A stretch of DNA of 48,836 bases, taken from sequence record NC_005833.1, one strand, 5' to 3'. This stretch comes from Escherichia phage T1. Below, piece by piece: positions 1 through 39,023 of this stretch; the stretch's first letter is position 1, and the number at the start of each line of letters is the position of its first letter. The translations under genes and the position numbers were made by a program. The notes beneath the pieces are model-generated. The model saw nothing but the letters and a program-made list of their open reading frames with translations, had not been told where the DNA came from and did not search any database.

Positions 1-104
1 GTTGCATGGTGTGCAACTGTTGATGTGATTGTTGCTTAGAATGCAATGATTGTGAGAGGGGGGATCTAGTGTTACCAGGTTCGCCTGGTAGTCATCTCCA
101 TTTT

Positions 105-120
105 TAGCAAAAAGTGCTAT
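105..120 (-). promoter_or_regulatory. box copy near left end, reverse orientation, lacking a -10-like hexamer
   Basis: Plus strand TAGCAAAAAGTGCTAT; adjacent hairpin CCAGG ttcg CCTGG at 75-88. Confidence 0.35.
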
Positions 121-207
121 CGATTACGATTACGCTTGATTGCGTGTTAATCATTGTATATGATTTGCCTAAATCGCAATCGTATACAAAATTACGCCAA
201 ATTACGC

Positions 208-290
208 CTTATAATATACATATAGATATATGTATATATATAATATATAAGTGTTTTTTTTATTTATATATATAGATACTATTATTTGTA
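208..290. repeat. alternating AT-rich (TATATA-type) tract
   Basis: ataatatacatatagatatatgtatatatataatatataagtgttttttttatttatatatatagatac; a similar tract recurs at 30001-30070. Confidence 0.6.
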
Positions 291-396
291 ATATGGTTGT
301 ATAGCGTGTCTTTTATGTTAATCGTTGGATGCTCTGATTATGATGCTCATGTTTATATATACAGTAGTTTTATCGGCGCATATTTATTTAGGGAAA

Positions 397-423
397 TCGA
401 TTAACACGATTAACACGATTAAC
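397..423. repeat. tandem 9-bp iteron (CGATTAACA x3)
   Basis: cgattaacacgattaacacgattaacc read directly in the left intergenic region. Confidence 0.7.
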
Positions 424-538
424 CACACTTAAAATCGCCCCGCAGACCTTGACACATGCGGGTCGTCGTGTAACACTACGATTAGAGACACGGTGTTACA
501 TGTTAATCATGGTGTATATTGAAACTAAGGAGAAAGCT

Positions 539-1114
539 ATGAGTTCTTACCAGTCAGACGCAGTACAGGCAGCAATCAAGGCAGCTTACGAGAAGGCCGG
601 AGTAACGGTTGAGCAGCGACCGGAGGCAAAAGTGACCGATGTTATCCGGGCCGCCTGCGATCAGCTTTATGGTGATGGCGAGAATACCGAGTTCACATTC
701 GACGCGAATAAGATGGCTGAGGCCGCAGCAAGAAAGTCGATGCCAGACGCTGACGAACATGATGTTGCCAAAGGCGCCGAGTCCTGGTTGCTCGGGAAGA
801 CGGATGAGATTAACGAGAAGTTTAAATCCTCATTCATCACCCCGATCGTTTCTCGACACTTCTCCAAGATCGGCAAGTCGGTCAAGGTGAGCGTGACCAT
901 GAACGATGAGAAGTTGCGAGTCGTTACTATCTCAGTGAGTGACGAAGAAGTTCCGGTGAAGAAGCGCCGCAGCCGGAAAAAAGTCAGCCTGGCTGATTGT
1001 CTGGATTCGTTTGTTCCTGATGTTGATGATCTTGAGAAAGGCGACGTTACTGTAAGCACCGTGCGCGACCTGGTTCGCCAGATGAAAGCGCATATCGAAA
1101 AATGTGGACTGTAA
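539..1114 (+). CDS. hypothetical early protein, first gene of rightward early operon
   Basis: Track ORF 449..1114; start refined to ATG 539 preceded by AAGGAG; basic KKRRSRKK patch; no recognisable domain. Confidence 0.5.
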   Translation: MSSYQSDAVQAAIKAAYEKAGVTVEQRPEAKVTDVIRAACDQLYGDGENTEFTFDANKMAEAAARKSMPDADEHDVAKGAESWLLGKTDEINEKFKSSFITPIVSRHFSKIGKSVKVSVTMNDEKLRVVTISVSDEEVPVKKRRSRKKVSLADCLDSFVPDVDDLEKGDVTVSTVRDLVRQMKAHIEKCGL

Positions 1115-1126
1115 GGAGAAGTAATT

Positions 1127-1453
1127 ATGTTTAATATCAAACCATTAACAGAAGCAGAGAAACAGGCTCAGGCCAAGCAAACCGAAAACATCCAAGTGAT
1201 CGCTGATGCGCTGATTGGTAAGAGGTCAATCAAAATAAACCTCGACACTGTTGGTCAGTCATTTTTTACTAAAGGTTTGGATAAGTACGTTATAAATGTG
1301 AAGGCGAGAGACCTGGTGGCGAGAATTCAAAAGCTAAACAATCAAAAGCTAAAGCTCATCAAGGTCGAAGGCAACATGTGCGAAATTGAGAACCTCAGCG
1401 CACCAGACCCGAATAAGTGGGAAATCACCGATGTCGAGTTTATCGTAGAATAG
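1127..1453 (+). CDS. hypothetical protein (108 aa)
   Basis: Track ORF with GGAG RBS; stop TAG lies inside conserved box at 1450. Confidence 0.5.
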   Translation: MFNIKPLTEAEKQAQAKQTENIQVIADALIGKRSIKINLDTVGQSFFTKGLDKYVINVKARDLVARIQKLNNQKLKLIKVEGNMCEIENLSAPDPNKWEITDVEFIVE

Positions 1454-1499
1454 CACTTTTTGTTAAAACCGGATCGGGGTATCTTGCTATAGTTACCCC
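1450..1499 (+). promoter_or_regulatory. conserved box-hairpin element (ATAGCACTTTTTGTTAAAAC, 22 nt, TATAGT)
   Basis: Box 1450-1469; TTGTTA 1460-1465; 22-nt spacer; TATAGT 1488-1493; inverted repeat GGGGTA 1476-1481 / TACCCC 1494-1499. Confidence 0.6.
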
Positions 1500-1531
1500 A
1501 TCAAAACGAGATACCAATCAGAGGAATCACC

Positions 1532-1762
1532 ATGTCAATCGTCAAGAACCAGCAAGCCATCGATTCAACCAATAACAACCGCTTTGCTATTTTCATCACT
1601 CGCGACAACAAGCGCTTTGCAGTAAAGGCCGTACCAGGTGGATACAAAACCTACATGGAAGATAACGGAAAGTGGGTGCGGTGCGACAACCTCGCAAACT
1701 TCTTGGTCTGGAACGCAGACCTGCAGGGATTCGATGACATCAGCACTTTAATTGAGGAGTAA
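1532..1762 (+). CDS. hypothetical protein (76 aa)
   Basis: Track ORF downstream of box-hairpin element 1450-1499; RBS GAGG. Confidence 0.5.
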   Translation: MSIVKNQQAIDSTNNNRFAIFITRDNKRFAVKAVPGGYKTYMEDNGKWVRCDNLANFLVWNADLQGFDDISTLIEE

Positions 1763-1767
1763 TAATC

Positions 1768-1995
1768 ATGCCACGTTACAGCAACCTAACTCAACTAACC
1801 CGCGTCAACGGGCACATGATCCCGGCAAAATCCACTCACTACGCAATGGGAGCAAAGCACGGATTGTATTTCAAATGGCGCGGTCAATGGAACTTCACGG
1901 TTATTCGTAATTTCTACATTAGAGTTACAGGTGATGACCCGCAATCGGTCGTAGAGAACTCAATCGGCGACAACAAGATCGAGGTGCTGAAATGA
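1768..1995 (+). CDS. hypothetical protein (75 aa)
   Basis: Track ORF, tightly packed after preceding gene. Confidence 0.5.
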   Translation: MPRYSNLTQLTRVNGHMIPAKSTHYAMGAKHGLYFKWRGQWNFTVIRNFYIRVTGDDPQSVVENSIGDNKIEVLK

Positions 1996-2102
1996 ACTTC
2001 AACATAATTGCTTTCTGGTCTGCCGTATGGTTCTTTTGCGTAGGTCATGTTGTGGTTGGAATCGTAATCATGTTGCTACTGTGTGCGGGAGCGTTCGAAT
2101 GA
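1992..2102 (+). CDS. small hydrophobic protein (36 aa, single predicted TM helix)
   Basis: Manual translation MNFNIIAFWSAVWFFCVGHVVVGIVIMLLLCAGAFE; ATG overlaps upstream stop (ATGA); below 60 aa so absent from track. Confidence 0.3.
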   Translation: MNFNIIAFWSAVWFFCVGHVVVGIVIMLLLCAGAFE

Positions 2103-2272
2103 TGCGGATTCTGATTTGCATGATGGCGGCGGTCGCCATGGCTATCCTGGTAGTGTCCGGCTGCGGCGAGGCCAGGGATAGCTGTCATGAAACCGGGAGC
2201 CAGGTTACTACTTTCGTGATGGTTGGCAACGTATTGCTACCAATAACATCAAATGAAATCACTTGCGAATAG
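2099..2272 (+). CDS. small putative lipoprotein (about 57 aa)
   Basis: Inside track ORF 2027..2272; start refined to ATG 2099 overlapping preceding stop; signal-like MMRILICMMAAVAMAILVVSGC with lipobox-like VVSGC. Confidence 0.4.
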   Translation: MMRILICMMAAVAMAILVVSGCGEARDSCHETGSQVTTFVMVGNVLLPITSNEITCE

Positions 2273-2319
2273 CACTTTTTGTTAAAACTCAACTCCGGGG
2301 TTGCGATATAGTAACCCCA
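2269..2319 (+). promoter_or_regulatory. conserved box-hairpin element
   Basis: ATAGCAC 2269-2275; TTGTTA 2279-2284; 22-nt spacer; TATAGT 2307-2312; GGGGTT / AACCCC arms. Confidence 0.6.
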
Positions 2320-2343
2320 TCGACAACGAACGAGGACGCAAAC

Positions 2344-2832
2344 ATGAAAATTAAATTACTTAGCAATGGCGGTTACAAGGGATTCACCCGCGACCTGGAA
2401 GCTGACCCTATCGTGGTTGACGCGGTTAAGTGCGACTCAAGTACTGGAGGCTACCGCGTTAAGGTTGATGACCTTGTAAAAGCTGGCGTGTACGATCTTG
2501 ATTATGGCCTGTCGGTTAGCCCGGTATTTGGCCCAGCTGACTTCAACGAGAAAGACGGAACGATGTTCTTTTTTGATTGGGAAGTGAAGGCAAACATCAA
2601 GCCGCGCAAGGTTCGTCTTCTCAGCAATGGCGGCTACCCGATGCGACCAGGTTATGAGAATCGCACGTTCCCGGTTATCGTTGACTTCATTGGGACAACT
2701 GACAACTTGGTATACGTTAGCCATGAGCAACTTAAGGCAGTTGGATTCGTTGGCGGTATGAATAAAGAAGCGCTTTGCTTCTTCCATCGATGTCCAGAGC
2801 CGATCGGTATTGAGTGCGAGTTAGTATACTAA
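2344..2832 (+). CDS. hypothetical protein with internal duplication (two LLSNGGY-containing halves)
   Basis: Track ORF 2263..2832; start refined to ATG 2344; repeated KIKLLSNGGYKGF / KVRLLSNGGYPMR segments. Confidence 0.5.
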   Translation: MKIKLLSNGGYKGFTRDLEADPIVVDAVKCDSSTGGYRVKVDDLVKAGVYDLDYGLSVSPVFGPADFNEKDGTMFFFDWEVKANIKPRKVRLLSNGGYPMRPGYENRTFPVIVDFIGTTDNLVYVSHEQLKAVGFVGGMNKEALCFFHRCPEPIGIECELVY

Positions 2833-2879
2833 GCACGAATTGTTAAAAGGGGATTTGGCCTGACTGGTATAATCCCCAC
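2829..2879 (+). promoter_or_regulatory. conserved box-hairpin element
   Basis: cTAAGCACGAATTGTTAAAAG; TTGTTA 2840-2845; 22-nt spacer; TATAAT 2868-2873 (TGG-TATAAT); GGGGATT / AATCCCC arms. Confidence 0.6.
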
Positions 2880-2903
2880 ATCAACCACTAATAGGAAAGC
2901 ATC

Positions 2904-3389
2904 ATGTTAAAATTAAAAGATATTCAGTTCCCTGTAGTATTTAACACTATTAGCTGCGGTAAAATAACCTGCCACAGCAAAGATCGCGCAACAGATTCAT
3001 CATTCAATGAGTGCCACCCGTCTATTGTTGGTAATCTTATTGAGCTTCATAACAATCACAATCCTGATAACATCCCATCTCTTCCATATTATGTTGAGGG
3101 AGTCGGGCCTGGTTGGAAGGTTGGTCGCTCCATCTTCCATGCAGCAAAGCCAGAAATCAAGCCAGCGCTACAATGCACTCAGATCGAGAACATGCCATTG
3201 AGCGCGACACTAAAAGGTGTCCAACTTGATAGCGAATCCTGGATCGAGATTACCGCCACGCCTAAAACTATTGAGGTACATGATGATGTGGTGATTCTCC
3301 TGTTGCATTACGGCAGCTTTAAGCACAAGACGGTATCAGGTGAAATCAGCATTAAGCGCGGAACTCTTGTCCGCTACGAGGTGAAATAA
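2904..3389 (+). CDS. hypothetical protein (161 aa)
   Basis: Track ORF after box-hairpin element 2829-2879. Confidence 0.5.
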   Translation: MLKLKDIQFPVVFNTISCGKITCHSKDRATDSSFNECHPSIVGNLIELHNNHNPDNIPSLPYYVEGVGPGWKVGRSIFHAAKPEIKPALQCTQIENMPLSATLKGVQLDSESWIEITATPKTIEVHDDVVILLLHYGSFKHKTVSGEISIKRGTLVRYEVK

Positions 3390-3538
3390 TGACTGCATGG
3401 GTCTTGATTATCTTGATGAGCAAAGGTCCGGATCACGTATACATGGAAAGTCAACAATCATGCAACAAGGCACGGGAAGTTATCGCAGAGAACAAGCCGT
3501 TCGGATATGAAGTAAAAACTATGTGCGTTAAACGATAG
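3389..3538 (+). CDS. small hypothetical protein (49 aa)
   Basis: Manual translation; ATG overlaps upstream TAA (TAATG); stop TAG inside box at 3535. Confidence 0.3.
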   Translation: MTAWVLIILMSKGPDHVYMESQQSCNKAREVIAENKPFGYEVKTMCVKR

Positions 3539-3586
3539 CACGAATTGCTAAACCTTCCGCAAGGCCATTTGATATAGTGGCCTTAT
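3535..3586 (+). promoter_or_regulatory. conserved box-hairpin element
   Basis: ATAGCACGAATTGCTAAAC; TTGCTA 3545-3550; 22-nt spacer; TATAGT 3573-3578; AAGGCCA / TGGCCTT arms. Confidence 0.6.
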
Positions 3587-3618
3587 TGAAGCACGACAAC
3601 CAACTGGAGGTAAAATTT

Positions 3619-3993
3619 ATGAAATTCGAATGTATCAGCGATAACACCAAAAAATTTACTGTTGGCAAAATTTACGATGTTCCGACTGAGCACGCAGAGC
3701 AAACCGTAGCTCTGACCGACGACACGGGCCGCAACCGAATTGCAACCGTAACTCACAACGGTGAAGGTCTTCGCTGGAATAGCGGCGGCACTAAGTTCGC
3801 AACGTTCGGCAAGAAGCGCAAGCGCACCTTCCGCGTCAACGGCAATGTTGCAGCTAACAAGATCCATAACGTCAAGCCGTCGGAAGTTGACCGCAAGCCA
3901 GCGCTGAAGTTTAAAGAGAAGGTGGATTTATTCAATCTTGCCGCCTCGCTTGTTCTCCTGGTCGCTGCTATTTCGCTGCTTTCCATCATGTAA
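3619..3993 (+). CDS. hypothetical protein with C-terminal transmembrane anchor
   Basis: Track ORF 3577..3993; start refined to ATG 3619 after GGAGG; C-terminal LFNLAASLVLLVAAISLLSIM hydrophobic helix. Confidence 0.45.
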   Translation: MKFECISDNTKKFTVGKIYDVPTEHAEQTVALTDDTGRNRIATVTHNGEGLRWNSGGTKFATFGKKRKRTFRVNGNVAANKIHNVKPSEVDRKPALKFKEKVDLFNLAASLVLLVAAISLLSIM

Positions 3994-4000
3994 TGCTAAT

Positions 4001-4035
4001 GGGGAATCGACTCTGAACGGTTCCCCTTTCTTTTG
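4001..4035 (+). terminator. rho-independent terminator
   Basis: GGGGAA(t)CG .. CG(g)TTCCCC stem followed by TTTCTTTTGG. Confidence 0.5.
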
Positions 4036-4141
4036 GAGAAAACACTATGCCAGACTTTTCTAACTGGAATAACGAGCCGCCATCATTTCAGGAGTTGCTA
4101 TTCTGCCTCCTGGTCCTGACATTATCTCTTAAGGGTGTTTT

Positions 4142-4360
4142 ATGGCTACTATCATGACAGTAGAAGATGCAGCACGCGATGCAGTGGAAGGAATGCGCCC
4201 AAATACCTCCAGAATAGCACACTACTACAAATCTGAGGTGTCGGCAGTGCAATTGGTCCACGAAATTTTAAGGCTCCCACAAGTCGATTCAGCGCGCGTT
4301 GTGACGTGCTTAAAAAATTATTTTTGCATCACTATTAAAACGAATAGCACGAATTGCTAA
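4142..4360 (+). CDS. hypothetical protein (72 aa); a competing 36-aa ORF at 4047..4157 has the better RBS
   Basis: Track ORF; weak RBS; overlaps small ORF 4047..4157. Confidence 0.25.
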   Translation: MATIMTVEDAARDAVEGMRPNTSRIAHYYKSEVSAVQLVHEILRLPQVDSARVVTCLKNYFCITIKTNSTNC

Positions 4361-4395
4361 AACCTATCAAGGGGAATACGCTATGATTCCCCTAC
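4344..4395 (+). promoter_or_regulatory. conserved box-hairpin element
   Basis: ATAGCACGAATTGCTAAAAC; TTGCTA 4354-4359; 22-nt spacer; TATGAT 4382-4387; AGGGGAAT / ATTCCCCT arms. Confidence 0.6.
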
Positions 4396-4417
4396 ACCAA
4401 CAAACGAGGAAGCGATC

Positions 4418-4864
4418 ATGAAACACTTAATCTGCATTGAAGCGCCTAACGATCAATACACCCTGCATGGACTTGGTGTGTTCAAAGGTCACTACATTAC
4501 CGCAGGAACTTACGATGCTCGTCGCGGCGATGGCGACCTAATGATTACGTCAAAAGAAGTAAATCCGTACATCATGCAGAATCTTGGCAATAACGAATAT
4601 ATGGCCTATGGCTGCAACGCGGTGTACAAGCACGTTAAGATCCGCAAGCGTGTTGTGCGTGCATTCAAGAAGATTGCAATTAAATACTGGAAAATGAGCA
4701 AGAAAGATGCCGGACGTTGGGCGCGCAACGTTGCAGATTCATACTTCTATCGTAACGGCGAATCCTGCTACTTCCTGATCGATGAACTTATGGAAAACTA
4801 CGGTGGCGACTTCAGCCAGGGTAGCTTTGATGACTGGGCCAACTATGAGATCAGTTGCTGGTAA
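4418..4864 (+). CDS. hypothetical protein (148 aa)
   Basis: Track ORF after box-hairpin element 4344-4395; RBS GAGGAAG; double stop TAATAG. Confidence 0.5.
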   Translation: MKHLICIEAPNDQYTLHGLGVFKGHYITAGTYDARRGDGDLMITSKEVNPYIMQNLGNNEYMAYGCNAVYKHVKIRKRVVRAFKKIAIKYWKMSKKDAGRWARNVADSYFYRNGESCYFLIDELMENYGGDFSQGSFDDWANYEISCW

Positions 4865-4917
4865 TAGCACGAATTGCTAAAACTTGCTCAAGGGCATTTG
4901 TTAGAATGCCCTTCGTT
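4864..4917 (+). promoter_or_regulatory. conserved box-hairpin element
   Basis: ATAGCACGAATTGCTAAAAC; TTGCTA 4874-4879; 22-nt spacer; TAGAAT 4902-4907; AAGGGCAT / ATGCCCTT arms. Confidence 0.6.
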
Positions 4918-4947
4918 GAGTTAAGCAACCAATCAGAGGAATAAATC

Positions 4948-5478
4948 ATGGATAAAATCACAATTTGGGGCCAGACAATCAACCTGTTTCTCGGCACGCG
5001 CCGAGTGGCAATCTTTGACTTTGACGGGACACTTAGCGATGGATCTGGTCGACTTCACCTGCTGCCAACAAAGGATTTGCACTTGACTGAAAGCTGGTCT
5101 GAGTTTAACCGAGCGGCAATATTTGATAACCCAATCCAGAGCACGATCGATGTGATGAACTCTATGTTTGCCGCTGGGTATCATGTGATCATTTTAACCG
5201 GGCGAAGTGATGAGGTGCGTTACGCATCTGAGTTATGGCTTAAGCATCACGGCGCTCGATATGATTACTTAGTCATGCGACCGCATACCGACAACCGCAA
5301 AGACACGGTAATGAAAGAAGAGGCAGTGCGCGCTATCGGCATTGATAACATTCTTGCGGCTTGGGATGACTCAGTGAATATAATAAAAAAATTCAGAGAT
5401 CTAGGGATAACCACATATCAGGTTTGTGAATATGCCTGTGATAGTCGAGAGGATTTAAATAGTCATGGTGTCGATTGA
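4948..5478 (+). CDS. HAD-superfamily phosphatase (nucleotidase or polynucleotide 3'-phosphatase-like)
   Basis: HAD motif I FDFDGTL, motif II ILTGR, downstream K and WDDS; RBS GAGGAA. Confidence 0.6.
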   Translation: MDKITIWGQTINLFLGTRRVAIFDFDGTLSDGSGRLHLLPTKDLHLTESWSEFNRAAIFDNPIQSTIDVMNSMFAAGYHVIILTGRSDEVRYASELWLKHHGARYDYLVMRPHTDNRKDTVMKEEAVRAIGIDNILAAWDDSVNIIKKFRDLGITTYQVCEYACDSREDLNSHGVD

Positions 5479-5959
5479 TAACAAATCAATGGTAAGAGAG
5501 TTATTTACTTATTCTGACGGCGTTCTGTATTGGAAGGCCAAATCATCTAAATACAGTAGAGCTAAAATAGGAGGCGCGGCAGGAAGCAAGGATAAAGACG
5601 GATACATAATAATCAGAGTAAGAAACGAAACTAGAGGCGCTCACAGGCTTGTATGGATATACCATAATGGCAAGATACCTGATGGAATGGAGGTAGACCA
5701 TATGGATGGAGACATAACAAACAATAGAATAGAAAACCTAAGATTGGTAACGAGAACCATAAATAACAGGAATCAAAAAAAGAGATCTGATAACACAACC
5801 GGAGTATCCGGTGTAACTTTCATGAAAGATAGAGGAAAGTATAGGGCGCAAGTTAGAAACAAGAGACTCGGGCAGTTCGACACAATAGAAGAGGCCGCCA
5901 AAGCAGTAAAGGATGAGCGGGATAGATTAGGTTTATTCACAAAAAGACACGGGGTGTAA
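5465..5959 (+). CDS. HNH homing endonuclease with AP2-like DNA-binding domain
   Basis: YHNGKIPDGMEVDHMDGDITNNRIENL HNH core plus TGVSGV..KYRAQV AP2-like segment; AGA/ATA-rich codon usage unlike neighbours. Confidence 0.75.
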   Translation: MVSIDNKSMVRELFTYSDGVLYWKAKSSKYSRAKIGGAAGSKDKDGYIIIRVRNETRGAHRLVWIYHNGKIPDGMEVDHMDGDITNNRIENLRLVTRTINNRNQKKRSDNTTGVSGVTFMKDRGKYRAQVRNKRLGQFDTIEEAAKAVKDERDRLGLFTKRHGV

Positions 5960-5961
5960 AC

Positions 5962-6534
5962 ATGAAAACAGCTATCATTTTAAACGGCGCACCTGGTGCG
6001 GGAAAGGACACTATCGGATGCATCCTGGCTGACACTTACGATCATGTAGCGCTACGCAGCTTCAAAGCGCCAATGTTTGAGATTGCCCGAGCAATCCTGG
6101 GTGAGACTAATTTCGAGTATTTCATGTTCTTGTATGAGGACCGTCGCTATAAAGAAGAGCCAGCGTCAATCCTGAACGGTAAAAGCCCGCGCCAGTTTAT
6201 GATCTGGATTAGCGAGGAGGTCATCAAGCCGCAGTTCGGAAATCGCTTCTTCGGTATGCGAGCGGAAAGTAAGGTGAAAGAGTCGCATTCACTTTCGGTA
6301 TTTACTGACGGTGGATTCAAAGACGAGATCTTGCAGATGATTGAAGGTGACATCCAGGTCAAGCTGTGTCGAATCCATCGCAACGGTTGCAACTTTGACA
6401 ACGACAGTCGCGACTATATCTATCTTGACGATATGATCGGGGTCAACGGTTATCAGGAGTGTGACTTCTTTTCTGTCGAAGGCCATCCAGAAATTACCGC
6501 TCAGCACATAGCCGCCACGTTCATCAATAAATAG
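5962..6534 (+). CDS. P-loop nucleotide/polynucleotide kinase
   Basis: Walker A GAPGAGKDT near N-terminus (GKDT as in dNMP kinases); about 190 aa. Confidence 0.6.
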   Translation: MKTAIILNGAPGAGKDTIGCILADTYDHVALRSFKAPMFEIARAILGETNFEYFMFLYEDRRYKEEPASILNGKSPRQFMIWISEEVIKPQFGNRFFGMRAESKVKESHSLSVFTDGGFKDEILQMIEGDIQVKLCRIHRNGCNFDNDSRDYIYLDDMIGVNGYQECDFFSVEGHPEITAQHIAATFINK

Positions 6535-6582
6535 CACGAATTGCTAAAACGTCGGTGTGGTGATTTGATATAGTTACCTCAT
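6531..6582 (+). promoter_or_regulatory. conserved box-hairpin element
   Basis: ATAGCACGAATTGCTAAAAC 6531-6550; 22-nt spacer; TATAGT 6569-6574. Confidence 0.6.
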
Positions 6583-6606
6583 CGACAACGAAGAGAGAAA
6601 ATCGAA

Positions 6607-6816
6607 ATGATGGTATCAACTGATAAGTTTTTCACTTGCACCAAAACTTCTGAGGTATTCGAGCTGGTTCATACTGACAACGGTGATTTCATGCATGACG
6701 GTTGCGACGCTTTCATTGAAGTGAAAGAAAGCGACTATGACGACGGAGTTTATTACAACCCTGCGGTTAACACGCAGTTTTTTACCCCGATCGAAGAGGA
6801 AGGAGAAGAGGCATGA
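6607..6816 (+). CDS. hypothetical protein (69 aa), acidic C-terminus
   Basis: Track ORF after box-hairpin element 6531-6582. Confidence 0.45.
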   Translation: MMVSTDKFFTCTKTSEVFELVHTDNGDFMHDGCDAFIEVKESDYDDGVYYNPAVNTQFFTPIEEEGEEA

Positions 6817-7157
6817 TCACGATTAACCTGTCAGATAAACAAGCGCGTGAAATACTAGACACTATCGGAGAACAGCTTCACGTAAAAGGCGATACCGCTG
6901 AGATTCTTAACCAGATCGAAAGACAGCTAACCCCTGTGTCGACGAATCAAGCTGAGTTCGCAGCATGGAAAAGCGAACGCATCCTGCCAAATATCATCAA
7001 GGCATGGAAGCGCAAGCATAAAAAAGAAATCAACGTTGAGGATTTATTTACCGATGAATTAAGTCCTTCAAATGTTGCTCAATACCAGTTGCGATACATG
7101 GAGTCGGTTTGCAATCAGGTTTTAGGTGTAAGTTTTTCATTCAAAGGTGATAAATAA
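6813..7157 (+). CDS. hypothetical protein (114 aa)
   Basis: Track ORF; ATGA overlap with upstream gene. Confidence 0.45.
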   Translation: MITINLSDKQAREILDTIGEQLHVKGDTAEILNQIERQLTPVSTNQAEFAAWKSERILPNIIKAWKRKHKKEINVEDLFTDELSPSNVAQYQLRYMESVCNQVLGVSFSFKGDK

Positions 7158-7387
7158 TGTTCGGTTTAAGCGAAGCGGAGTGGAATGTTGTAAAGCGTGC
7201 CGCGAAAGAATTAAACAAATTCGTCAGCGGAATGAAGAAAGAAGATCGGAAAAACGACAAGATTATGATTGACGTAATTTCGACTCACCATAAAAAGGTC
7301 GAACTACTCATTGACCGCTACAAATTTGTCTGGACTGCCGGGTATATTGCAGGGCGCGTAGGTAACAAAGAGGGGGATTATGAATAA
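7157..7387 (+). CDS. hypothetical protein (76 aa)
   Basis: Track ORF; start overlaps upstream stop. Confidence 0.45.
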   Translation: MFGLSEAEWNVVKRAAKELNKFVSGMKKEDRKNDKIMIDVISTHHKKVELLIDRYKFVWTAGYIAGRVGNKEGDYE

Positions 7388-7590
7388 TGGCCAATTTACC
7401 AAAGAAAGGCGATCAGGTTCGATGTGTCACTTCACGCAATGGTAATGCTTTATCGGCGGGGTGCTTGTACGACGTAGAAAAAGTCAGTAAGTCAAAGAGG
7501 CTTGTATTCGTGTACGGCGACGATGGAAATCTGCATGAGATTGATTACCCGCAGGATGTAACTAATGGTCAATTCGAAATTAATGATTGA
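7387..7590 (+). CDS. hypothetical protein (67 aa)
   Basis: Track ORF; start overlaps upstream stop. Confidence 0.45.
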   Translation: MANLPKKGDQVRCVTSRNGNALSAGCLYDVEKVSKSKRLVFVYGDDGNLHEIDYPQDVTNGQFEIND

Positions 7591-7754
7591 CCTAAATCCC
7601 TGAGCGGTGATAGTATTAATCCCGTAGACAGACGAGGCGCAACTAAGCGCAACGCGTGAGACGATTCTCACACTTCCAGCTAACAAGCTCGGTTGCATAG
7701 TGGTTAAGCAACGCCGCAGACCCGTAAGCGGCAACAATTCAAGAGGATTGCATA

Positions 7755-7916
7755 ATGCAAAAAACTAAAGACGAATCAGTCAAAATTGAAATTAAAGTAA
7801 CTCGCAACGGTGAAACCACTCGTTATAAAAAACGATTAAATCCTGGCGAGGCTGTTATTGGTCGCATTGCTGGCGTTATGATTAAGGCGCAGGAAGATGA
7901 AGCGATTCAAAGTTAA
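7755..7916 (+). CDS. small hypothetical protein (53 aa)
   Basis: Manual translation; AAGAGGA RBS 7 nt upstream of ATG; absent from track (below 60 aa). Confidence 0.3.
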   Translation: MQKTKDESVKIEIKVTRNGETTRYKKRLNPGEAVIGRIAGVMIKAQEDEAIQS

Positions 7917-8082
7917 ATTAATTATTCGAAAGATGGGAATGTTTTGCCAGTCGTGCAAGCAATCTTTCGAAGCTGAATTATCAGCAACCAGTCAGGATGA
8001 AGCCATCACGAAAGCAAAAAAACTTTCCGGCGCTAACCTTGACACTCACAAAATAAATATTGAATTAATCAAGGAGATTTAA
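7897..8082 (+). CDS. small hypothetical protein with CxxC pair
   Basis: Track ORF; true start may be an internal Met (MGMFCQSC). Confidence 0.3.
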   Translation: MKRFKVKLIIRKMGMFCQSCKQSFEAELSATSQDEAITKAKKLSGANLDTHKINIELIKEI

Positions 8083-8083
8083 C

Positions 8084-8311
8084 ATGACAATTTTTTTATT
8101 AATTATCGCTGGTGTCATTATTTTTGGTGCTGGTTTGTTTGCTGGCTTCGCACTTGTGGCGGCAGCAATTGCGATGGACGCGAAGGATAAAACTGGTGTA
8201 TGGCTGACCTACTCACCTAAGAAGGACCAATGGGAAATGACTGGCGACCTTGCTCACTGCTATTCTAAAGCTAAGACCCACCCTAAAGGCATTAAACGAC
8301 GATTGTCGTGA
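8084..8311 (+). CDS. small membrane protein (N-terminal TM helix)
   Basis: Track ORF; IFLLIIAGVIIFGAGLFAGFALVAAAIA hydrophobic stretch; followed by terminator 8322-8342. Confidence 0.45.
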   Translation: MTIFLLIIAGVIIFGAGLFAGFALVAAAIAMDAKDKTGVWLTYSPKKDQWEMTGDLAHCYSKAKTHPKGIKRRLS

Positions 8312-8321
8312 TGAACACTAA

Positions 8322-8342
8322 CCCGCTCCGGCGGGTTTTTTT
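8322..8342 (+). terminator. rho-independent terminator ending early region
   Basis: CCCGC tccg GCGGG followed by T7. Confidence 0.65.
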
Positions 8343-8395
8343 ATGCCTGCAATATGGTAAAATAGCACTAAATGTTAAACAAAGAGGATGTATTT

Positions 8396-8920
8396 ATGAG
8401 TGAACCTAAGAACGCTCCCGTAGTCCAGGGTGGTAATTTCAAAGAGCTATACAAGAAAAAGTTTGGCACTGTACTCGCGAAAAACCGGGCTATGACGCCA
8501 GAGCAACTATTCGATCTGTCAGTGAAGTATTTCGAATGGGCCGAGGACAATGCGATCAAGGCGTCAGAATCAGCCAGCTTTCAGGGTGGCGTTTATGAGT
8601 CGCTTGTCCATAAGCCGCGCGTCTTCACCTGGACCGGATACCGACTATTCATCGGTGCAAGCGAGGCTGCAATCATTAAGTGGAAGCGAGAGGAAGAATA
8701 CAGCGAGGTTATGGAGTTTGTGGAATCGGTAATCAACGAGCAAAAATTCCAGCTTGCCGCCAACGGTGTTATTAATGCCTCCTTTATCGGTAAGGATCTC
8801 GGAATCGATAAGCCAGCCTCAATCAATATCGAAAACTCGTCAGCTTCCGCATCGACAGTAGTCGCCACTACTGAGGATGCGATGAAAGAGGCGGTAAACA
8901 GCATTCTTGATATGCTTTAA
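8396..8920 (+). CDS. terminase small subunit (positional inference)
   Basis: Track ORF 8372..8920; start refined to ATG 8396 after AAGAGGA; immediately upstream of terminase large subunit. Confidence 0.5.
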   Translation: MSEPKNAPVVQGGNFKELYKKKFGTVLAKNRAMTPEQLFDLSVKYFEWAEDNAIKASESASFQGGVYESLVHKPRVFTWTGYRLFIGASEAAIIKWKREEEYSEVMEFVESVINEQKFQLAANGVINASFIGKDLGIDKPASINIENSSASASTVVATTEDAMKEAVNSILDML

Positions 8921-15049: not shown

Positions 15050-15070
15050 CATAAAAACACTTTGACGCTT

Positions 15071-15086
15071 TAACAAAAAGTGCTAT
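15071..15086 (-). promoter_or_regulatory. box copy in antisense orientation between Ig-like protein gene and capsid gene
   Basis: Plus strand TAACAAAAAGTGCTAT (reverse complement ATAGCACTTTTTGTTA); plus strand also reads TTGACG-16-TATTAT. Confidence 0.4.
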
Positions 15087-15093
15087 TATTGAA

Positions 15094-15117
15094 GCCGTGA
15101 ACATAATCACGGTTTTT
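15094..15117 (+). terminator. rho-independent terminator / attenuator upstream of capsid gene
   Basis: CCGTGA acataa TCACGG followed by T6. Confidence 0.55.
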
Positions 15118-15139
15118 TATTAACTATGGAGAAGTAATC

Positions 15140-16099
15140 ATGACTACTAAAAAATTTGATGAAGCAGATAAAAGCAATGTTGAAATGTATCTGATCCAGG
15201 CTGGCGTAAAACAGGATGCGGCCGCAACGATGGGTATCTGGACCGCTCAGGAACTACACCGCATCAAAAGCCAGTCCTATGAAGAAGACTACCCGGTCGG
15301 CTCAGCTTTACGCGTATTCCCGGTTACAACCGAGCTTTCTCCGACCGACAAGACGTTTGAGTATATGACCTTTGATAAGGTTGGTACGGCTCAGATTATC
15401 GCAGACTACACCGACGATCTTCCGCTGGTTGATGCCCTGGGTACTTCTGAATTTGGCAAGGTGTTCCGTCTTGGTAACGCGTACCTGATCTCAATCGACG
15501 AAATCAAAGCGGGTCAGGCAACTGGTCGCCCACTGTCAACCCGTAAGGCGAGTGCGTGCCAGTTGGCGCATGATCAGCTTGTTAACCGCCTGGTGTTCAA
15601 AGGTTCCGCGCCGCACAAGATTGTGTCCGTGTTCAACCATCCGAATATCACCAAAATTACCTCTGGTAAGTGGATTGATGTATCTACTATGAAGCCGGAA
15701 ACTGCGGAAGCTGAGCTAACTCAAGCGATCGAAACCATCGAGACGATTACTCGTGGTCAGCACCGCGCAACCAACATCCTGATCCCGCCTTCCATGCGTA
15801 AGGTTTTGGCGATTCGTATGCCTGAGACAACCATGTCTTACCTGGACTATTTTAAGTCTCAGAACTCCGGTATCGAAATCGACTCTATCGCAGAGCTTGA
15901 GGATATTGACGGCGCAGGCACCAAAGGCGTACTGGTGTACGAAAAGAATCCGATGAACATGTCCATCGAGATCCCGGAAGCATTTAACATGCTGCCAGCA
16001 CAACCGAAAGACTTGCACTTTAAAGTGCCTTGCACCTCTAAGTGTACTGGTCTTACAATTTATCGCCCGATGACTATTGTCTTAATCACTGGCGTGTAA
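15140..16099 (+). CDS. major capsid protein
   Basis: 319-aa ORF with AT-rich strong RBS, flanked by rho-independent terminators; position within head module. Confidence 0.65.
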   Translation: MTTKKFDEADKSNVEMYLIQAGVKQDAAATMGIWTAQELHRIKSQSYEEDYPVGSALRVFPVTTELSPTDKTFEYMTFDKVGTAQIIADYTDDLPLVDALGTSEFGKVFRLGNAYLISIDEIKAGQATGRPLSTRKASACQLAHDQLVNRLVFKGSAPHKIVSVFNHPNITKITSGKWIDVSTMKPETAEAELTQAIETIETITRGQHRATNILIPPSMRKVLAIRMPETTMSYLDYFKSQNSGIEIDSIAELEDIDGAGTKGVLVYEKNPMNMSIEIPEAFNMLPAQPKDLHFKVPCTSKCTGLTIYRPMTIVLITGV

Positions 16100-18758: not shown

Positions 18759-18794
18759 ATACCATCCACAGGGGGCTTGCACCCCCTTATTCAT

Positions 18795-18850
18795 TTCTGT
18801 AAAATCATCTTATCAACTTTATTCGATTAACTTTTAACAAAAAGTGCTAT
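18795..18850 (-). promoter_or_regulatory. box copy in antisense orientation between major tail and chaperone genes
   Basis: Plus strand TTAACAAAAAGTGCTAT 18834-18850; reverse-strand reading has TAAGAT hexamer 22 nt downstream. Confidence 0.4.
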
Positions 18851-18871
18851 CAACCAATCAGGAGAAACATC

Positions 18872-19189
18872 ATGGCTAAATTCAATTTCGTGTTGGGCCA
18901 GCTTCCAGACTTCAAACTTCCGGTGACGTTCACCATGCCAAACGGCGAGGATGCGACTATTATTTTTACAGTACGCCACCTTTCCAGTAAAGAAGTGCAA
19001 GATATGTATGCGAAGCAGGGCGAAATGAATGATAGCGATTTCATCACTAAGATAGCATCAGGATGGAATCTGGAAGAAGAATTTAACGAAGAGAATACGC
19101 GTAAGCTGGTACAGTATTATCCTTCCGCAGCGTACAATCTGACGGCAACTTACATCAAGGCGCTCGCCGGACACCGCGCAAAAAACTAA
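18872..19189 (+). CDS. tail assembly chaperone (lambda G-like)
   Basis: 105-aa ORF directly upstream of tape measure gene; ends in slippery heptamer. Confidence 0.55.
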   Translation: MAKFNFVLGQLPDFKLPVTFTMPNGEDATIIFTVRHLSSKEVQDMYAKQGEMNDSDFITKIASGWNLEEEFNEENTRKLVQYYPSAAYNLTATYIKALAGHRAKN

Positions 19190-24965: not shown

Positions 24966-24971
24966 AATTAA

Positions 24972-25006
24972 CCCGCCTTGCGCGGGTTTTTTTTCGCCTG
25001 TATAAT
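24972..25006 (+). promoter_or_regulatory. terminator-promoter composite between I-like and J-like genes (near-identical second copy)
   Basis: Same CCCGCCTTGCGCGGG + T-run; TTGCGC 24978-24983, 17 nt, TATAAT 25001-25006. Confidence 0.55.
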
Positions 25007-25042
25007 GAGTCCACCGATAAATAGCACAAAAAGGTAAACATC

Positions 25043-28000
25043 ATGATTCAAAAAGTGATAAGCGGATCTAAAGGTGGGTCACAGAAGCCTCATAACCCAG
25101 TTGAGATGGAGGACAATCTAATCTCAATCAACAAAATCAAGATCCTGTTAGCTGTATCTGATGGTGAAATTGACGAAACATTCAGCCTGAAGCAGTTGAT
25201 GTTTAACTCAGTCCCGGTGCAAAACGAGGATGGCTCATTTAACTTCGAGGGAGTAAAGGCAGAGTTCAGACCGGGGACGCAGACTCAGGAATATATCAAG
25301 GGAATGGAAGATAGCTCTAGTGAGGTAACTGTAAATCGTGAGGTTACTACCGATAACCCATACACAATCTCAGTAACCAACAAAACGCTGTCGGCAATCC
25401 GTATCAAAATGTTCATGCCTCGCGGCGTACGAATTGAAAGTAACGGTGATAAAAATGGCGTAAGAGTTGAGTATGAGGTGCAACAAGCTGTTGATGGCGG
25501 CTCGTTTGAGACGGTGCTCACCGATGTAATCGAAGGCAAAACAATGTCAGGTTACGATCGAAGCAGACGTGTAAACCTACCTAACTTCAACAATCAGGTG
25601 ATATTCAGAGTGGTTCGGAAAACTCCAGACTCTAACGACTCGAACGTTGTTGACGCGATTCAGGTAAAGAGCTATGCCGAGGTGATTGATGCCAAATTCC
25701 GTTATCCGCTGACTGGTCTTCTTTTTGTCGAGTTTGATTCGAAGATGTTCCCAAACCAGTTACCTACGATCTCAATTCGTAAGCGCTGGAAGATTGTAAA
25801 CGTTCCGTCAAACTATGATCCAGAATCACGAACTTATAACGGAAATTGGGATGGAACTTTTAAGAAGGCATGGACGAATAATCCGGCCTGGGTGCTTTAT
25901 GACCTGATGATTAATCAGCGTTATGGCTTGGATCAGAAAGAGCTTGGTATCGCTGTAGATAAATGGGCGCTCTACGAGGCTGCGCAATATTGCGATCAGA
26001 TGGTTCCTGATGGGAAGGGCGGGACGGAACCTCGATACCTTTGCGACGTGATAATCCAGTCTCAGACTGACGCTTACAAGGTTATCCGAGATATTTGCTC
26101 AATCTTTCGTGGTATGAGCTTTTGGAATGGTGAGAGCATTTCGGTAATCATCGACAGGCCGCGTGAACCTGCGTACATCTTCACTAACGACAACGTTGTT
26201 AATGGTGACTTCTCCTACACGTTCGCAAGCGAAAAGAGCATGTACACGACGTGTAATGTGATGTTTGATGATGAACAAAACATGTATCAGCAGGACGTTG
26301 AGCCAGTATTCGATCGTGAGGCTACTCTACGGTTTGGGAACAACGTTACGAGCATTACAGCGATCGGTTGCACACGTCGAAGCGAGGCCAACCGACGCGG
26401 GAGATGGATTCTGAAAACTAACCTCCGCAGCACTACGGTAAACTTCGCTACCGGGCTTGAGGGCATGATCCCGACAATCGGAGATGTTGTGGCAATAGCT
26501 GATAACTTCTGGTCAAGTAACTTGACAATGAACCTGTCAGGGCGTTTGCTCGAAGTGTCTGGAAGTCAGATTTTCTTGCCGTTCCGGGTGGATGCACGCG
26601 CTGGTGACTTTATTATCGTAAATAAGCCAGATGGCAAGCCTGTGAAGCGCACAATCTCAAGTGTTAGTGCGGATGGTAAGACTATAGAGGTTAACATTGG
26701 CTTTGGCTTTCCTGTGAAGCCTAACACGGTATTCGCTATCGACCGCACCGACATTGCGTTACAGCAGTACGTCGTGACAAAAATCGATAAGGGCGATGAT
26801 GATGAGGAATTTACCTACAAAATAACGGCGGTGGAGTACGATCCTAACAAGTATGATGAGATTGATTACGGAGTTAACATCGACGACCGACCGACGAGCA
26901 TCGTTGAACCAGATCAGATCCCTAGACCGAAAAATGTGCAAGTATCCTCAGAGTCGAGAATCGTCCAGGGGATGAGCGTAGAAACGATGATTGTTAGCTG
27001 GGATAAAGTTCCGTACGCTGTTTTCTATGACGTCCAGTGGCGAAAGGATAACGGCAACTGGCAAAATGTACCGCAGACAGCAAACAAAGAGGTATACGTT
27101 GAAGGTATTTACGCTGGCAACTATCAGGTTCGCGTTCGCTCAGTCGCTGGTTCGGGCACGACTTCAGGCTGGTCAAATATCGTCGCGGCAACGTTGACGG
27201 GTAAACAGGGTGAACCGGGCCGACCGATTAACCTCACAGCTACGGATGATGTTGTTTTTGGTATCCGTACAAAATGGGGGTTCTCTGATGGTTCTGGAGA
27301 TACAGCCTATACAGAGTTGCAACAGTCACCGGATGGAACAGTGGATAACGCAAGTTTGCTTTCTTTGATTCCGTATCCGCAGCATGAGTATTATCACTCA
27401 CCAATGCCTGGAGGGAATATTGTTTGGTATCGGGTAAGGACGGTTGACAGGATCGGTAACGTGTCTCAGTGGACTGATTTTGTCAGAGGTATGGCATCAA
27501 CAAACGTTGACGATATCATTGGGGAGATTTCTGTTGATATCGAAAACTCACCTGGTTACGAGTGGCTTGTTGATAACGCAACAGACAACGCGGCGCAGAA
27601 CTCAGCTAACGCAGAGGCAGCAATAGAAAACGCGCTCGCCAATGACAAAGACGCGATCTACATGAAGAAGGAGAACGGAAAACGAAAAGCTGAGTACACG
27701 AAATCACTGAAACTTATTGCTGATGAGACGCAGGCACGAGTGACGGCGATCGAGCAATTGAAGGCAAGTTTTGGCGATCAGATTAGCGCTAGCAACAGCG
27801 AGCTGCGTGAGGTTATCGCAACCGAGACTGAAGCACTATCGCGTGAGATTGACCAGCTTAAGGCTCAGATTGGTGACGATATTCAGGCAAGTCTGACTGA
27901 TATTCGGGAGGTTATCGCAACCGAGACTGAAGCACTATCGCGTGAGATTGACCAGCTTAAGGCTCAGATTGGTGACGATATTCAGGCAAGTCTGACTGAT

Positions 28001-29850: not shown

Positions 29851-30000
29851 TTGTATGTCCTCGTCGTTAGTGTGATTGCATTGTATGTCGCATTTACTTT
29901 TATTGCAATAGAGCGATTACAATTTTTTTCGTGTAACAGGCGTATATTTTTGTAACCGGAATGGGTGTTACAAAATCGCCTCCATCCGACCGCAGGGAGA

Positions 30001-30070
30001 TATGATAAAAACTCTATATAATATATATAGATAGATAATATTTAATTTTAGCTTTATATATATAATTATT
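30001..30070. repeat. second alternating AT-rich tract with flanking GTGTAACA-type repeats
   Basis: ctctatataatatatatagatagataatatttaattttagctttatatatataattattg; CGTGTAACAGG at 29929 and 30099. Confidence 0.6.
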
Positions 30071-30318
30071 GTTGTGTAACAGTTGTATATCGTGTAACAG
30101 GTGATTTGATTGATTCGTCAAATTTCTATCATGTATGTTCAAAATTTAATCAATCTGGATTCTATTTGTAGGTATCTCTGTATTTCTAATAAAAAGCGGT
30201 TACAAGTGTTACGCAATAGACAGCGCATAAAAATCTACTTAAGCCATTGATTCTGTTGATGCTGGTTGTAACTTGAGCAATATAGACACGCAATTACACA
30301 CTGATTACATGTATTCGA

Positions 30319-30346
30319 TTGACTAAACGCTGTTAATGGCTATAAT
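30319..30346 (+). promoter_or_regulatory. sigma70-like promoter for recombination operon
   Basis: TTGACT 30319-30324, 16-nt spacer, TATAAT 30341-30346, about 30 nt upstream of exonuclease start. Confidence 0.6.
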
Positions 30347-34881: not shown

Positions 34882-34901
34882 AGTATAAACTCCTTAAGTA
34901 A

Positions 34902-34945
34902 ATAGCACGAATTGCTAAGCAATGATTTTATCATTGTGATACCTG
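34902..34945 (+). promoter_or_regulatory. box copy between two reverse-strand genes (tail fibre and primase)
   Basis: ATAGCACGAATTGCTAAGC 34902-34920; hexamer position poor (TACCTG). Confidence 0.35.
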
Positions 34946-34960
34946 CCTTGCAATGGGCAA

Positions 34961-34983
34961 TAAAAAACCGCCCGAAGGCGGTT
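34961..34983 (-). terminator. rho-independent terminator of primase gene (reverse strand)
   Basis: AACCGCC cgaa GGCGGTT preceded on plus strand by A6 (T-run on reverse strand). Confidence 0.6.
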
Positions 34984-35929: not shown

Positions 35930-35969
35930 AAAATAAAAAACGCGTAGAAGGATGTTAACCCGCTACGCG
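35930..35969 (-). terminator. rho-independent terminator after HTH gene (reverse strand)
   Basis: CGCGTAG .. CTACGCG inverted repeat; plus-strand A-run 35930-35940 is the reverse-strand T-run. Confidence 0.5.
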
Positions 35970-35978
35970 TCGTTTGTT

Positions 35979-36443: not shown

Positions 36444-36500
36444 ATAGCACTTTTTGCTAAAAACGTTTACTTTATGCCGTGTATTATAGCGTAAACGTTA
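36444..36500 (+). promoter_or_regulatory. conserved box-hairpin element upstream of helicase
   Basis: ATAGCACTTTTTGCTAAAAAC; TTGCTA 36454-36459; 22-nt spacer; TATTAT 36482-36487; AACGTTTAC / GTAAACGTT arms. Confidence 0.55.
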
Positions 36501-38956: not shown

Positions 38957-39000
38957 CACTTTTTGTTAAAACTGCCGGGATGGAATCTGGCATTATTATC
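38953..39000 (+). promoter_or_regulatory. conserved box-hairpin element upstream of dam
   Basis: ATAGCACTTTTTGTTAAAAC; TTGTTA 38963-38968; 22-nt spacer; CATTAT 38991-38996. Confidence 0.55.
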
Positions 39001-39023
39001 TCACCAAAACGAGAGGAATAAAA

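Follow-up and report, generated by a model that had tools for sequence, protein, structure and literature searches.

Repeated early-gene elements of Escherichia phage T1 as putative class II marbox promoters for host stress activators

The marbox, soxbox or robbox, which is the site of the Escherichia coli activators MarA, SoxS and Rob, has been defined by the Grainger laboratory as the asymmetric sequence 5'-gcannwwntgnnaaa-3'; in class II promoters it stands in forward orientation, overlaps the -35 region and has its centre between -36 and -55 (at -41.5 in micF, the standard example of the class). Cryo-electron microscopy of SoxS and Rob at micF shows one monomer occupying both the A site (GCAC) and the B site (CAAA), where it keeps sigma region 4 off the -35 and contacts both sigma and the RNA polymerase alpha subunit's C-terminal domain (alpha-CTD). 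Rob, in addition, is constitutive and abundant. As to the T1-like phages, the re-annotation of phage TLS (German et al., 2024; PMC11447400) described a 21-nt direct repeat, aaATAGCACnnnTTGnTAAAA, which is oriented with transcription, lies about 76 nt upstream of start codons and is also present in T1, Rtp and Rogue1. Its authors, who identified no more than three sigma70-like promoters and neither a polymerase nor a sigma gene, left the function open; their suggestions were a stoperator, an enhancer site and an UP element. Here we analyze the corresponding box in Escherichia phage T1 (NC_005833.1; the window is the whole stretch of 48,836 nucleotides and agrees with MN153797 at 99.9% identity over 7 kb), where it is followed at a fixed distance by a -10-like hexamer wrapped in a hairpin, mostly in front of early genes. 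The TLS repeat and the T1 box are the identical sequence element in the same orientation with transcription, and the box as an observation is thus already published, for T1 in 2004 and for TLS in 2024; the fixed distance to the -10, the hairpin and the marbox identity are absent from the TLS paper and are added here. We propose, at a probability of roughly 0.7, that the box is an asymmetric 20-bp marbox recognized by E. coli MarA/SoxS/Rob and that the elements are class II marbox promoters of the sigma70 type.

Scanning of the 48,836-bp genome with the box pattern ATAGCACNNNTTGYTAAAAC, with up to two mismatches allowed, gave 16 matches against 0.01 expected. The initial annotation of this sequence, made from the letters alone, had listed seven copies in the left arm; all of them exist and six are among the 16 matches, but the third starts at 2830, not at 2829, and has the variant form TAAGCAC...AAAAG. 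The distance of 22 nt from TTGNTA to the hexamer (TATAGT, TATAAT, TATGAT or TAGAAT), described there as invariant, is indeed exact in all seven and recurs in 10 to 12 further T1 copies on both strands. The copies beyond the left arm belong to the minus-strand right-arm early genes and to the replication and middle genes. The box is also conserved in related phages, with an identical layout in TLS and Rtp, representatives of two other subfamilies, and a scan of IMG/VR added 120 stretches, nearly all from T1-like genomes, which measure 40 to 52 kb. The related records, 126 in number, contain 381 distinct box elements; in 263 of these the best -10-like hexamer has the offset 22, and offsets of 23 and 21 account for 19 and 10 elements, respectively. 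The earlier remark that upstream stop codons sit inside the box holds as well: an open reading frame (ORF) of at least 45 codons ends in or beside the box in 241 of 287 elements, using the TAG of aTAGcac in 126 cases and the TAA of TTGnTAA in 32.

The profile of the phage box, GCAC(T/G)WWTTG(C/T)TAAA, agrees with the marbox at 10 of the 10 specified positions, and its variable positions coincide with the n and w positions of the marbox. The published marbox consensus is gcactaattgctaaa; the T1 sequence at 39979-39993 (GCACTAATTGCTAAA) is identical to it at 15 of 15 positions, and six other T1 copies at 14 of 15. MarA sites known from chromatin immunoprecipitation (ChIP-seq) and in vitro work include gcactaattgctaaa, gcattaattgctaaa, gcattttttgctaaa and gcactaaatgttaaa, and in E. 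coli 15-mers identical to those of T1 show strong MarA binding in vitro; the T1 sequence at 8365-8379 is identical to the E. coli pheP site. With a weight matrix made from 30 E. coli MarA ChIP sites only, the T1 boxes score 14.7 to 20.1 bits, the median of the ChIP sites themselves being 13.5. By this matrix T1 has 25 sites of at least 14.5 bits (0.48 expected) and 16 of at least 17 bits (0.05 expected). A box that corresponds to a host marbox at every specified position, and in one copy equals its consensus, does not fit the phage-specific promoter class that had been proposed initially. Nor does the idea of a short palindrome bound by a dimeric protein agree with the data: the conservation is asymmetric (invariant C-44, AAAAC on the 3' side, AAAT on the 5' side), and marboxes are bound by monomers with two helix-turn-helix motifs.

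The geometry points in the same direction. The E. coli micF promoter, taken from a chromosome, consists of ACAGCACTGAATGTCAAAAC, 18 nt and TAGAAT, and its T1 counterpart of ATAGCACGAATTGCTAAAAC, 18 nt and TATAGT or TAGAAT. All copies with a -10 at offset 22 or 23 are oriented as in micF, the AAA being nearer to the -10 than the GCAC; the centre of the box is at about -40.5 from the predicted start, and the gap between box and hexamer is 18 bp, as in micF. Consequently, the 22-nt gap, which the initial annotation rightly considered not to be a sigma70 -35/-10 spacer, is resolved into the last four bases of the box (AAAC) and the 18-bp class II gap. In both systems the box is asymmetric and 20 bp long, has GCAC as its A site and (C/T)AAA as its B site, stands in forward orientation over the -35 position, 18 bp from the -10, and is accompanied by no functional -35; the two boxes are identical at 14 to 16 of 20 positions. 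In consensus, orientation and position alike, the T1 elements correspond, at the level of sequence, to class II marboxes. Unlike the E. coli class II promoters, T1 has about 20 near-consensus copies in one 49-kb virulent phage genome, and its elements have a TGn-extended -10, an RNA hairpin around the -10 and an upstream stop codon in the box. We found no link between the marbox and T1-like phages in the searchable literature, which did not cover the genome papers on T1 (2004) and Rtp (2006).

Three other identities of the box were considered and judged less fitting. In sigma54 promoters (TGGCAC-N5-TTGC) the GG and GC elements are exactly 10 bp apart, while the box, TAGCAC-N3-TTGC, has AG instead of GG and a spacing shorter by 2 bp. 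The UP element is an A/T-rich tract from -40 to -60 that is read by alpha-CTD and has no invariant G/C positions, while the GCAC and TG of the box are invariant at 97 to 100%. The Lrp consensus (YAGHAWATTWTDCTR, 15 bp long and A/T at its centre) would suit the arms TAGCA and TGCTA but not the invariant C-44 and the flanks AAAT and AAAAC; the marbox fits better and explains more positions of the box.

The rest of the element looks like a promoter. In a profile of 296 elements, aligned on the box and numbered from the predicted start, the box extends from -52 to -31 and is nearly invariant except at -43 (T/G), -42 and -41 (A/T) and -37 (C/T). The -35 position reads AAAACn, and there is no -35 hexamer at -35 to -30. 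The -10 is of the extended type, with G-14 in 84% and T-15 in 48% of the elements and the hexamer TAtaaT, and the predicted start has C-1 in 72% and A+1 in 84%; it is followed by an A-rich leader, ATCGAAACGA...GAGGA. Judged by their sequence, the elements combine an ordinary sigma70 -10 region and a start site with no -35. This agrees with the part of the initial annotation in which an upstream activator or operator box was paired with a sometimes TGn-extended -10: an upstream box for a protein would stand in place of the -35, and the -10 is often TGn-extended. The comparison made there with the logic of the T4 MotA promoters was a fair one. A scan of T1 positions 1-8500 for canonical promoters and terminators gave matches no more numerous than in shuffled sequence and none at the elements.

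The elements of T1 are as follows; the starts given are predicted ones.

1450-1500, plus strand: element 1; marbox 1450-1469 (ATAGCACTTTTTGTTAAAAC), 18-bp gap, TGc and -10 TATAGT at 1488-1493, start A1500; hairpin 1472-1502, stop TAG of the upstream ORF at 1451-1453, downstream gene from 1532.
2269-2319, plus strand: element 2; marbox 2269-2288, -10 TATAGT at 2307-2312, start A2319; hairpin 2297-2318 (GGGGTTGC/GTAACCCC), downstream gene from 2344.
2830-2880, plus strand: element 3; variant box TAAGCACGAATTGTTAAAAG at 2830-2849, TGg and -10 TATAAT at 2868-2873, start A2880; hairpin 2849-2877, downstream gene from 2904.
3535-3585, plus strand: element 4; marbox 3535-3554, TGa and -10 TATAGT at 3573-3578, start A3585; hairpin 3554-3591 (core 3561-3584), downstream gene from 3619.
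4344-4394, plus strand: element 5, putative orf65 promoter; marbox 4344-4363, -10 TATGAT at 4382-4387, start A4394; hairpin 4370-4393, orf65 from 4418; lies inside the Porf65-gfp reporter (Laganenka et al., 2019).
4864-4914, plus strand: element 6; marbox 4864-4883, TGt and -10 TAGAAT (the micF hexamer) at 4902-4907, start at about 4914; hairpin 4883-4925, polynucleotide kinase gene from 4948.
6531-6581, plus strand: element 7; marbox 6531-6550, TGa and -10 TATAGT at 6569-6574, start A6581; hairpin 6551-6586 with G.U pairs, downstream gene from 6607.
35945-35995, minus strand: element of the primase gene; box 35976-35995, -10 TAACAT at 35952-35957 in the loop of a hairpin GCGTAG...CTACGC that is followed by T6 and forms a full intrinsic terminator.
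36444-36494, plus strand: element of the helicase gene; marbox 36444-36463, -10 TATTAT at 36482-36487.
38953-39003, plus strand: element of dam (orf20); marbox 38953-38972, -10 CATTAT at 38991-38996; lies inside the published Pdam-gfp reporter.
39976-40026, plus strand: element whose box holds GCACTAATTGCTAAA (39979-39993); -10 TATAGT at 40014-40019, hairpin ACCCGGCGAAAGTCGGGT wholly inside the spacer.
41956-42006, plus strand: element with marbox 41956-41975 and a terminator-like hairpin ACCCGCGAAAGCGGGT followed by the T-rich TATTATTGTTTTAT; TATTAT at 41994-41999 is also the -10.
42510-42560, plus strand: degenerate copy ATAGCACCTTTTACCTAACC with CATAGT at the 22-nt offset.
46108-46158, minus strand: right-arm early element; box 46139-46158, -10 TATCAT at 46115-46120.
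47067-47117, minus strand: right-arm early element; box 47098-47117, -10 TAAAGT at 47074-47079.
47583-47633, minus strand: right-arm early element; box 47614-47633, -10 TATATT at offset 23.
48701-48751, minus strand: right-arm early element; box 48732-48751, -10 TATGAT at offset 23.

Between early and middle genes there are inserted genes for homing or HNH endonucleases (5465-5959, 42028-42510 and 46085-46624), and the one at 42028 has its own box promoter, that of the element at 41956.

The copy-specific hairpin that had been noticed around the hexamer is present in all seven left-arm copies, with energies of -11.9 to -18.9 kcal/mol, z values of -2.0 to -4.5 relative to dinucleotide shuffles and TGnTATA in the loop; for the 296 elements the mean minimum free energy is -12.1 and the median z is -2.96. 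The 5' arm lies mostly at -31 to -16 and the 3' arm at -9 to -1, in some copies reaching about +10, with TGnTA in the loop, and the 3' end of the stem falls most often at -1. As the stem ends at about -1, a transcript started at +1 would not include the 5' arm, and only read-through RNA would be able to fold. In the stems of the sense strand, counted over all copies, there are 97 G.T against 16 A.C oppositions, and the sense fold is more stable than the antisense one in 208 cases against 80 (59 against 36, p = 0.08, after collapse to 96 dissimilar clusters). These asymmetries are suggestive of a stem acting at the level of RNA rather than as a cruciform. A proper U tract with the full terminator layout is found in the copies at 35995 (minus strand) and 41956; for the related genome of phage SA32RD, the depositors annotated terminators on the equivalent stems by means of WebGeSTer and TransTermHP. 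We suppose, with low confidence, that the stem ends or stabilizes the upstream message and that the marbox promoter restarts transcription just after it.

The mechanism that we propose would be as follows. The 20-bp box at -50 to -31, a forward marbox with the A site GCAC at -47 to -44 and the B site YTAAA at -37 to -33, would be occupied by a monomer of a host activator of the AraC family, the candidates being the constitutive Rob, the stress-induced MarA or SoxS and, in Klebsiella and Salmonella, RamA. The bound monomer would replace the -35 contact and recruit RNA polymerase via alpha-CTD and sigma70 region 4, sigma70 would read the extended -10 (TGnTAtaaT) 18 bp downstream of the box, and transcription would start at the conserved CA, 7 nt past the hexamer. 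About 17 such promoters are predicted in T1, serving the early genes of both arms as well as those for replication and the middle genes, and similar numbers would be found in TLS, Rtp and other Drexlerviridae. The hairpin, in turn, in which the spacer (-30 to -16) is paired with -9 to about -1 or +5, may terminate, pause or stabilize at its 3' end the upstream message, so that each cassette would end one transcription unit and start the next. Taken together, this virulent, T1-like family probably turns on its own genes via the stress activators of the host.

Drexlerviridae are common phages of gut and sewage; they often turn up as laboratory contaminants and are also candidates for phage therapy. 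Genes for an RNA polymerase or a sigma factor are missing from their genomes, in each of which only about three canonical promoters can be found. The class II marbox reading offers a concrete and testable transcription model for them. Should it be true, phage gene expression would be tied to the host regulators of the response to antibiotics, bile salts and oxidative stress, which matters for phage-antibiotic combinations. Moreover, where related phages exchange early genes, the junctions are marked by the cassette, which comprises the box, the hairpin-wrapped -10 and the leader.

Several facts weigh against the host-activator reading and the accompanying role of the hairpin. The searchable literature holds no binding, footprint or transcription-start data for T1-like phages, and the extended -10 could allow transcription independent of any activator. 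The excess of G.T over A.C falls from 97:16 to 17:8 when redundancy is controlled by collapse to 96 dissimilar clusters (background ratio 0.66; p = 0.11 against equality). Among orthologous copies, which form small groups of very similar sequences, 74 of 99 pairs are invariant and one pair is changed on both sides; at least four T within the next 8 nt follow the stem in only 12 of 55 non-redundant cases, and none of the seven left-arm stems is called by a standard stem-plus-T-tract terminator scan. Two further facts concern the binding factor. According to Laganenka et al. (2019), who assayed orf65 and dam reporter fusions in uninfected E. coli, Orf65 activates its own promoter and represses pir, and Pir activates dam; the published reporters contain the elements at 4344 and 38953, so that the promoter on which Orf65 acts is a box promoter, which leaves room for a phage factor. 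Finally, 18 boxes are present in phage Motto, reported from Pseudomonas aeruginosa, and 15 in Vc1, reported from Vibrio cholerae. Neither of these species is known to have mar/sox/rob systems; if the host reports are right, MarA/SoxS/Rob would not be strictly required and the extended -10 may suffice. Both phages, at about 45% G+C, are collinear with the enterobacterial T1-like phages, and Pseudomonas and Vibrio are surprising as reported hosts of phages whose marbox promoters are of the enterobacterial type. The Vibrio phage vB_VpP_1 has only head genes in common with T1 and no boxes.

The facts about Orf65 and Pir, together with the boxes in phages of reported Pseudomonas and Vibrio hosts, are those on which an activator encoded by the phage itself could be built, the view preferred in the initial annotation: Orf65, Pir or an unrecognized early protein would bind the box and redirect the host polymerase, as MotA does in T4. 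Both activities reported for Orf65 involve a box, that of element 4344 and the one at 36444 in the pir leader, and dam, the target of Pir, has the box at 38953; with only three canonical sigma70 promoters evident (at the left end, recE and pir) an immediate-early regulator acting on the box promoters would give a classical cascade. We nevertheless regard such an activator as unlikely. Even at its degenerate positions the box agrees with the host marbox, and its spacing is that of micF. Pir is a conserved phage regulator with a Cro-like helix-turn-helix, but its recognition helix differs among T1, TLS and Rtp while the box is identical, and Porf65 is reportedly independent of Pir. Orf65, likewise rejected as the general box factor, has homologues only in close Tunavirus relatives, is absent from Rtp and weakly present in TLS, and contains no Pfam domain; its AlphaFold model is uninformative (pLDDT 51), and it is unrelated to the 'GntR-like' protein of phage Motto. 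A search with phmmer against all six-frame ORFs of T1, TLS and Rtp, using a MarA query validated against PDB entry 1BL0, gave no MarA/SoxS-like ORF, and Pfam revealed neither an AraC-type nor any other DNA-binding domain, and no MotA or AsiA domain, in the 19 early and middle proteins of T1 that were scanned. A host factor fits the conservation, since the box is invariant across three subfamilies while the Pir helix varies and Orf65 is restricted; it is also favored because no MarA/SoxS-like ORF was found in these phages, because the reporters were assayed in uninfected cells and because the early promoters must fire before any phage protein exists. In the T4 middle promoters, which need phage MotA and AsiA (sigma appropriation), the centre of the MotA box is near -30 and the gap to the -10 measures 11 to 13 bp. 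They have in common with the T1 elements an upstream box replacing the -35, a good and often TGn-extended -10 and the core TTGCT. The T1 box differs in its gap of 18 bp to the hexamer and in its centre at about -40.5, and no MotA or AsiA domain was detected in the 19 T1 proteins scanned.

It is also conceivable that the box is not an activator site at all and that the elements are simple extended -10 promoters. The box might then be a hotspot of recombination for gene cassettes, a stoperator, or an element of the UP or enhancer kind. The TLS authors proposed a stoperator, enhancer or UP element (PMC11447400), G-14 in 84% of the elements suggests independence of a -35, and orphan boxes with no -10 exist in T1 (8362, 25021, 15067-15086, 18831-18850 and 34902). 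Moreover, the elements coincide with mosaic breakpoints between related phages: in T1 1-8500, 35 of 100 internal homology breakpoints, which are not independent events, fall in elements covering 7.1% of the region. Still, this reading seems quite improbable to us: the fixed distance of 18 bp and the single orientation, seen in about 70% of some 380 copies, would be needless for recombination or a roadblock, the invariant GCAC and TG are unlike an UP element read by alpha-CTD, and the match to the marbox is far above chance. The mycobacteriophage L5 stoperators, to which the TLS authors referred, resemble the T1 boxes as numerous asymmetric sites oriented with transcription, but they bind a phage repressor, block elongation and have no fixed relation to a -10 hexamer. 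The T4-type phages RB49 and phi1 carry cassettes reportedly described by Arbiol and coauthors in 2010 as PeSLs (promoter-early stem-loops). Like the T1 elements, these are said to be small repeated cassettes of a promoter plus a stem-loop between small early ORFs, in variable regions and at mosaic breakpoints; unlike them, PeSLs combine a canonical sigma70 -35/-10 with separate efficient terminators, while the T1 stem wraps the -10 and mostly has no U tract. If the hairpins were plain rho-independent terminators of the upstream genes and the -10-like hexamers incidental, the annotations on the equivalent SA32RD stems and the U tracts at 35995 (minus strand) and 41956 would be accounted for. 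The failure of all seven left-arm stems in the terminator scan would not, nor would the consensus ATCGAAAC that follows the stem or the conservation of hexamer, G-14 and CA+1, whose distance from the box is fixed wherever the stem sits, and we consider this explanation very improbable. In a further reading the inverted repeat acts as DNA: it would be the operator of a dimeric protein or, like the promoters of the N4 virion RNA polymerase, an extruded hairpin or cruciform promoter. This reading is hardly credible. In its favor, the hexamer is in the loop in every copy, and in the copy at 36444 neither predicted transcript holds both arms, so that the repeat AACGTTTAC...GTAAACGTT there may be a protein site. 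However, the arm sequences vary among copies, which implies no common protein site; the G.T excess and the greater stability of sense folds lean away from a cruciform, although these are suggestive only; and neither an RNA polymerase nor a sigma gene of the phage is reported in the TLS paper (PMC11447400). The loops measure 4 to 8 nt in the seven left-arm copies. The N4 hairpin promoters have a short stem and a 3-nt loop and are used by a phage-encoded RNA polymerase. With its -10, TGn and CA+1 the T1 element is that of ordinary sigma70, and the DNA hairpin promoter suggested in the initial annotation could not be upheld.

Marboxes are present upstream of late genes too. Five late-gene upstream regions (8320-8396, 24971-25044, 34881-34982 on the minus strand, 15063-15140 and 18771-18872) have a common layout of an intrinsic terminator, a sigma70-like promoter and a marbox in a non-activating position, the orientation of which varies. 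The marbox lies over the start site in terS, inside the spacer of TTGACG-16-TATTAT in the major capsid gene and at about +5 to +37 in two tail fibre genes and the tail chaperone gene; two of these sites are kept in TLS and one in Rtp. Such a marbox could be an operator, so that one factor would activate the early promoters and repress the late ones. One might go further and place the whole temporal programme of T1-like phages on host MarA/SoxS/Rob/RamA: about 15 class II promoters would be turned on for the early and middle genes, the late marboxes would repress, and some 20 near-consensus marboxes per replicated genome copy would titrate the activator, releasing the late genes and, as a decoy, blunting the mar/sox/rob response of the host. 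This scheme is tentative and, in our opinion, rather doubtful. Between the promoter and the ribosome-binding site of the capsid gene, at 15095-15120, there is a terminator-like hairpin GCCGTG...CACGG followed by T7; as the predicted start is inside its 5' arm, RNA initiated at this promoter would escape termination and read-through RNA would stop.

The pir gene has a canonical promoter of its own:

36511-36483, minus strand: pir promoter; TTGAAT at 36511-36506, 17-nt spacer, TATAAT at 36488-36483.

It is arranged back to back with the marbox promoter of the helicase gene, the two -10s overlapping and the box falling at about +13 to +32 of the pir transcript. The two overlapping promoters should be mutually exclusive, which may account for the pir repression that has been published. 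Upstream of recE (30318-30346) stands a strong promoter of the canonical type, TTGACT-17-TATAAT; with those of the left end and of pir it makes up a set that corresponds to the three sigma70 promoters of TLS, the only ones reported for that phage.

A perfect box on the minus strand at 101-120, pointing to the left end of the record, is accompanied by the GC hairpin ACCAGGcgaaCCTGGT but has no -10 at offset 22. Its place on the circularly permuted genome is about 200 nt upstream of the right-arm element 48751. The regions 395-500 and 29900-30230 have common GTGTAACA or TGTTACA motifs, the first of them also containing CGATTAACA repeats, and are accompanied by long TATATA tracts (about 215-290 and 30015-30070). 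Each is located upstream of a canonical promoter, that of the first gene and that of recE, respectively, and the motifs could be sites for Pir or another regulator, or signals for replication or packaging.

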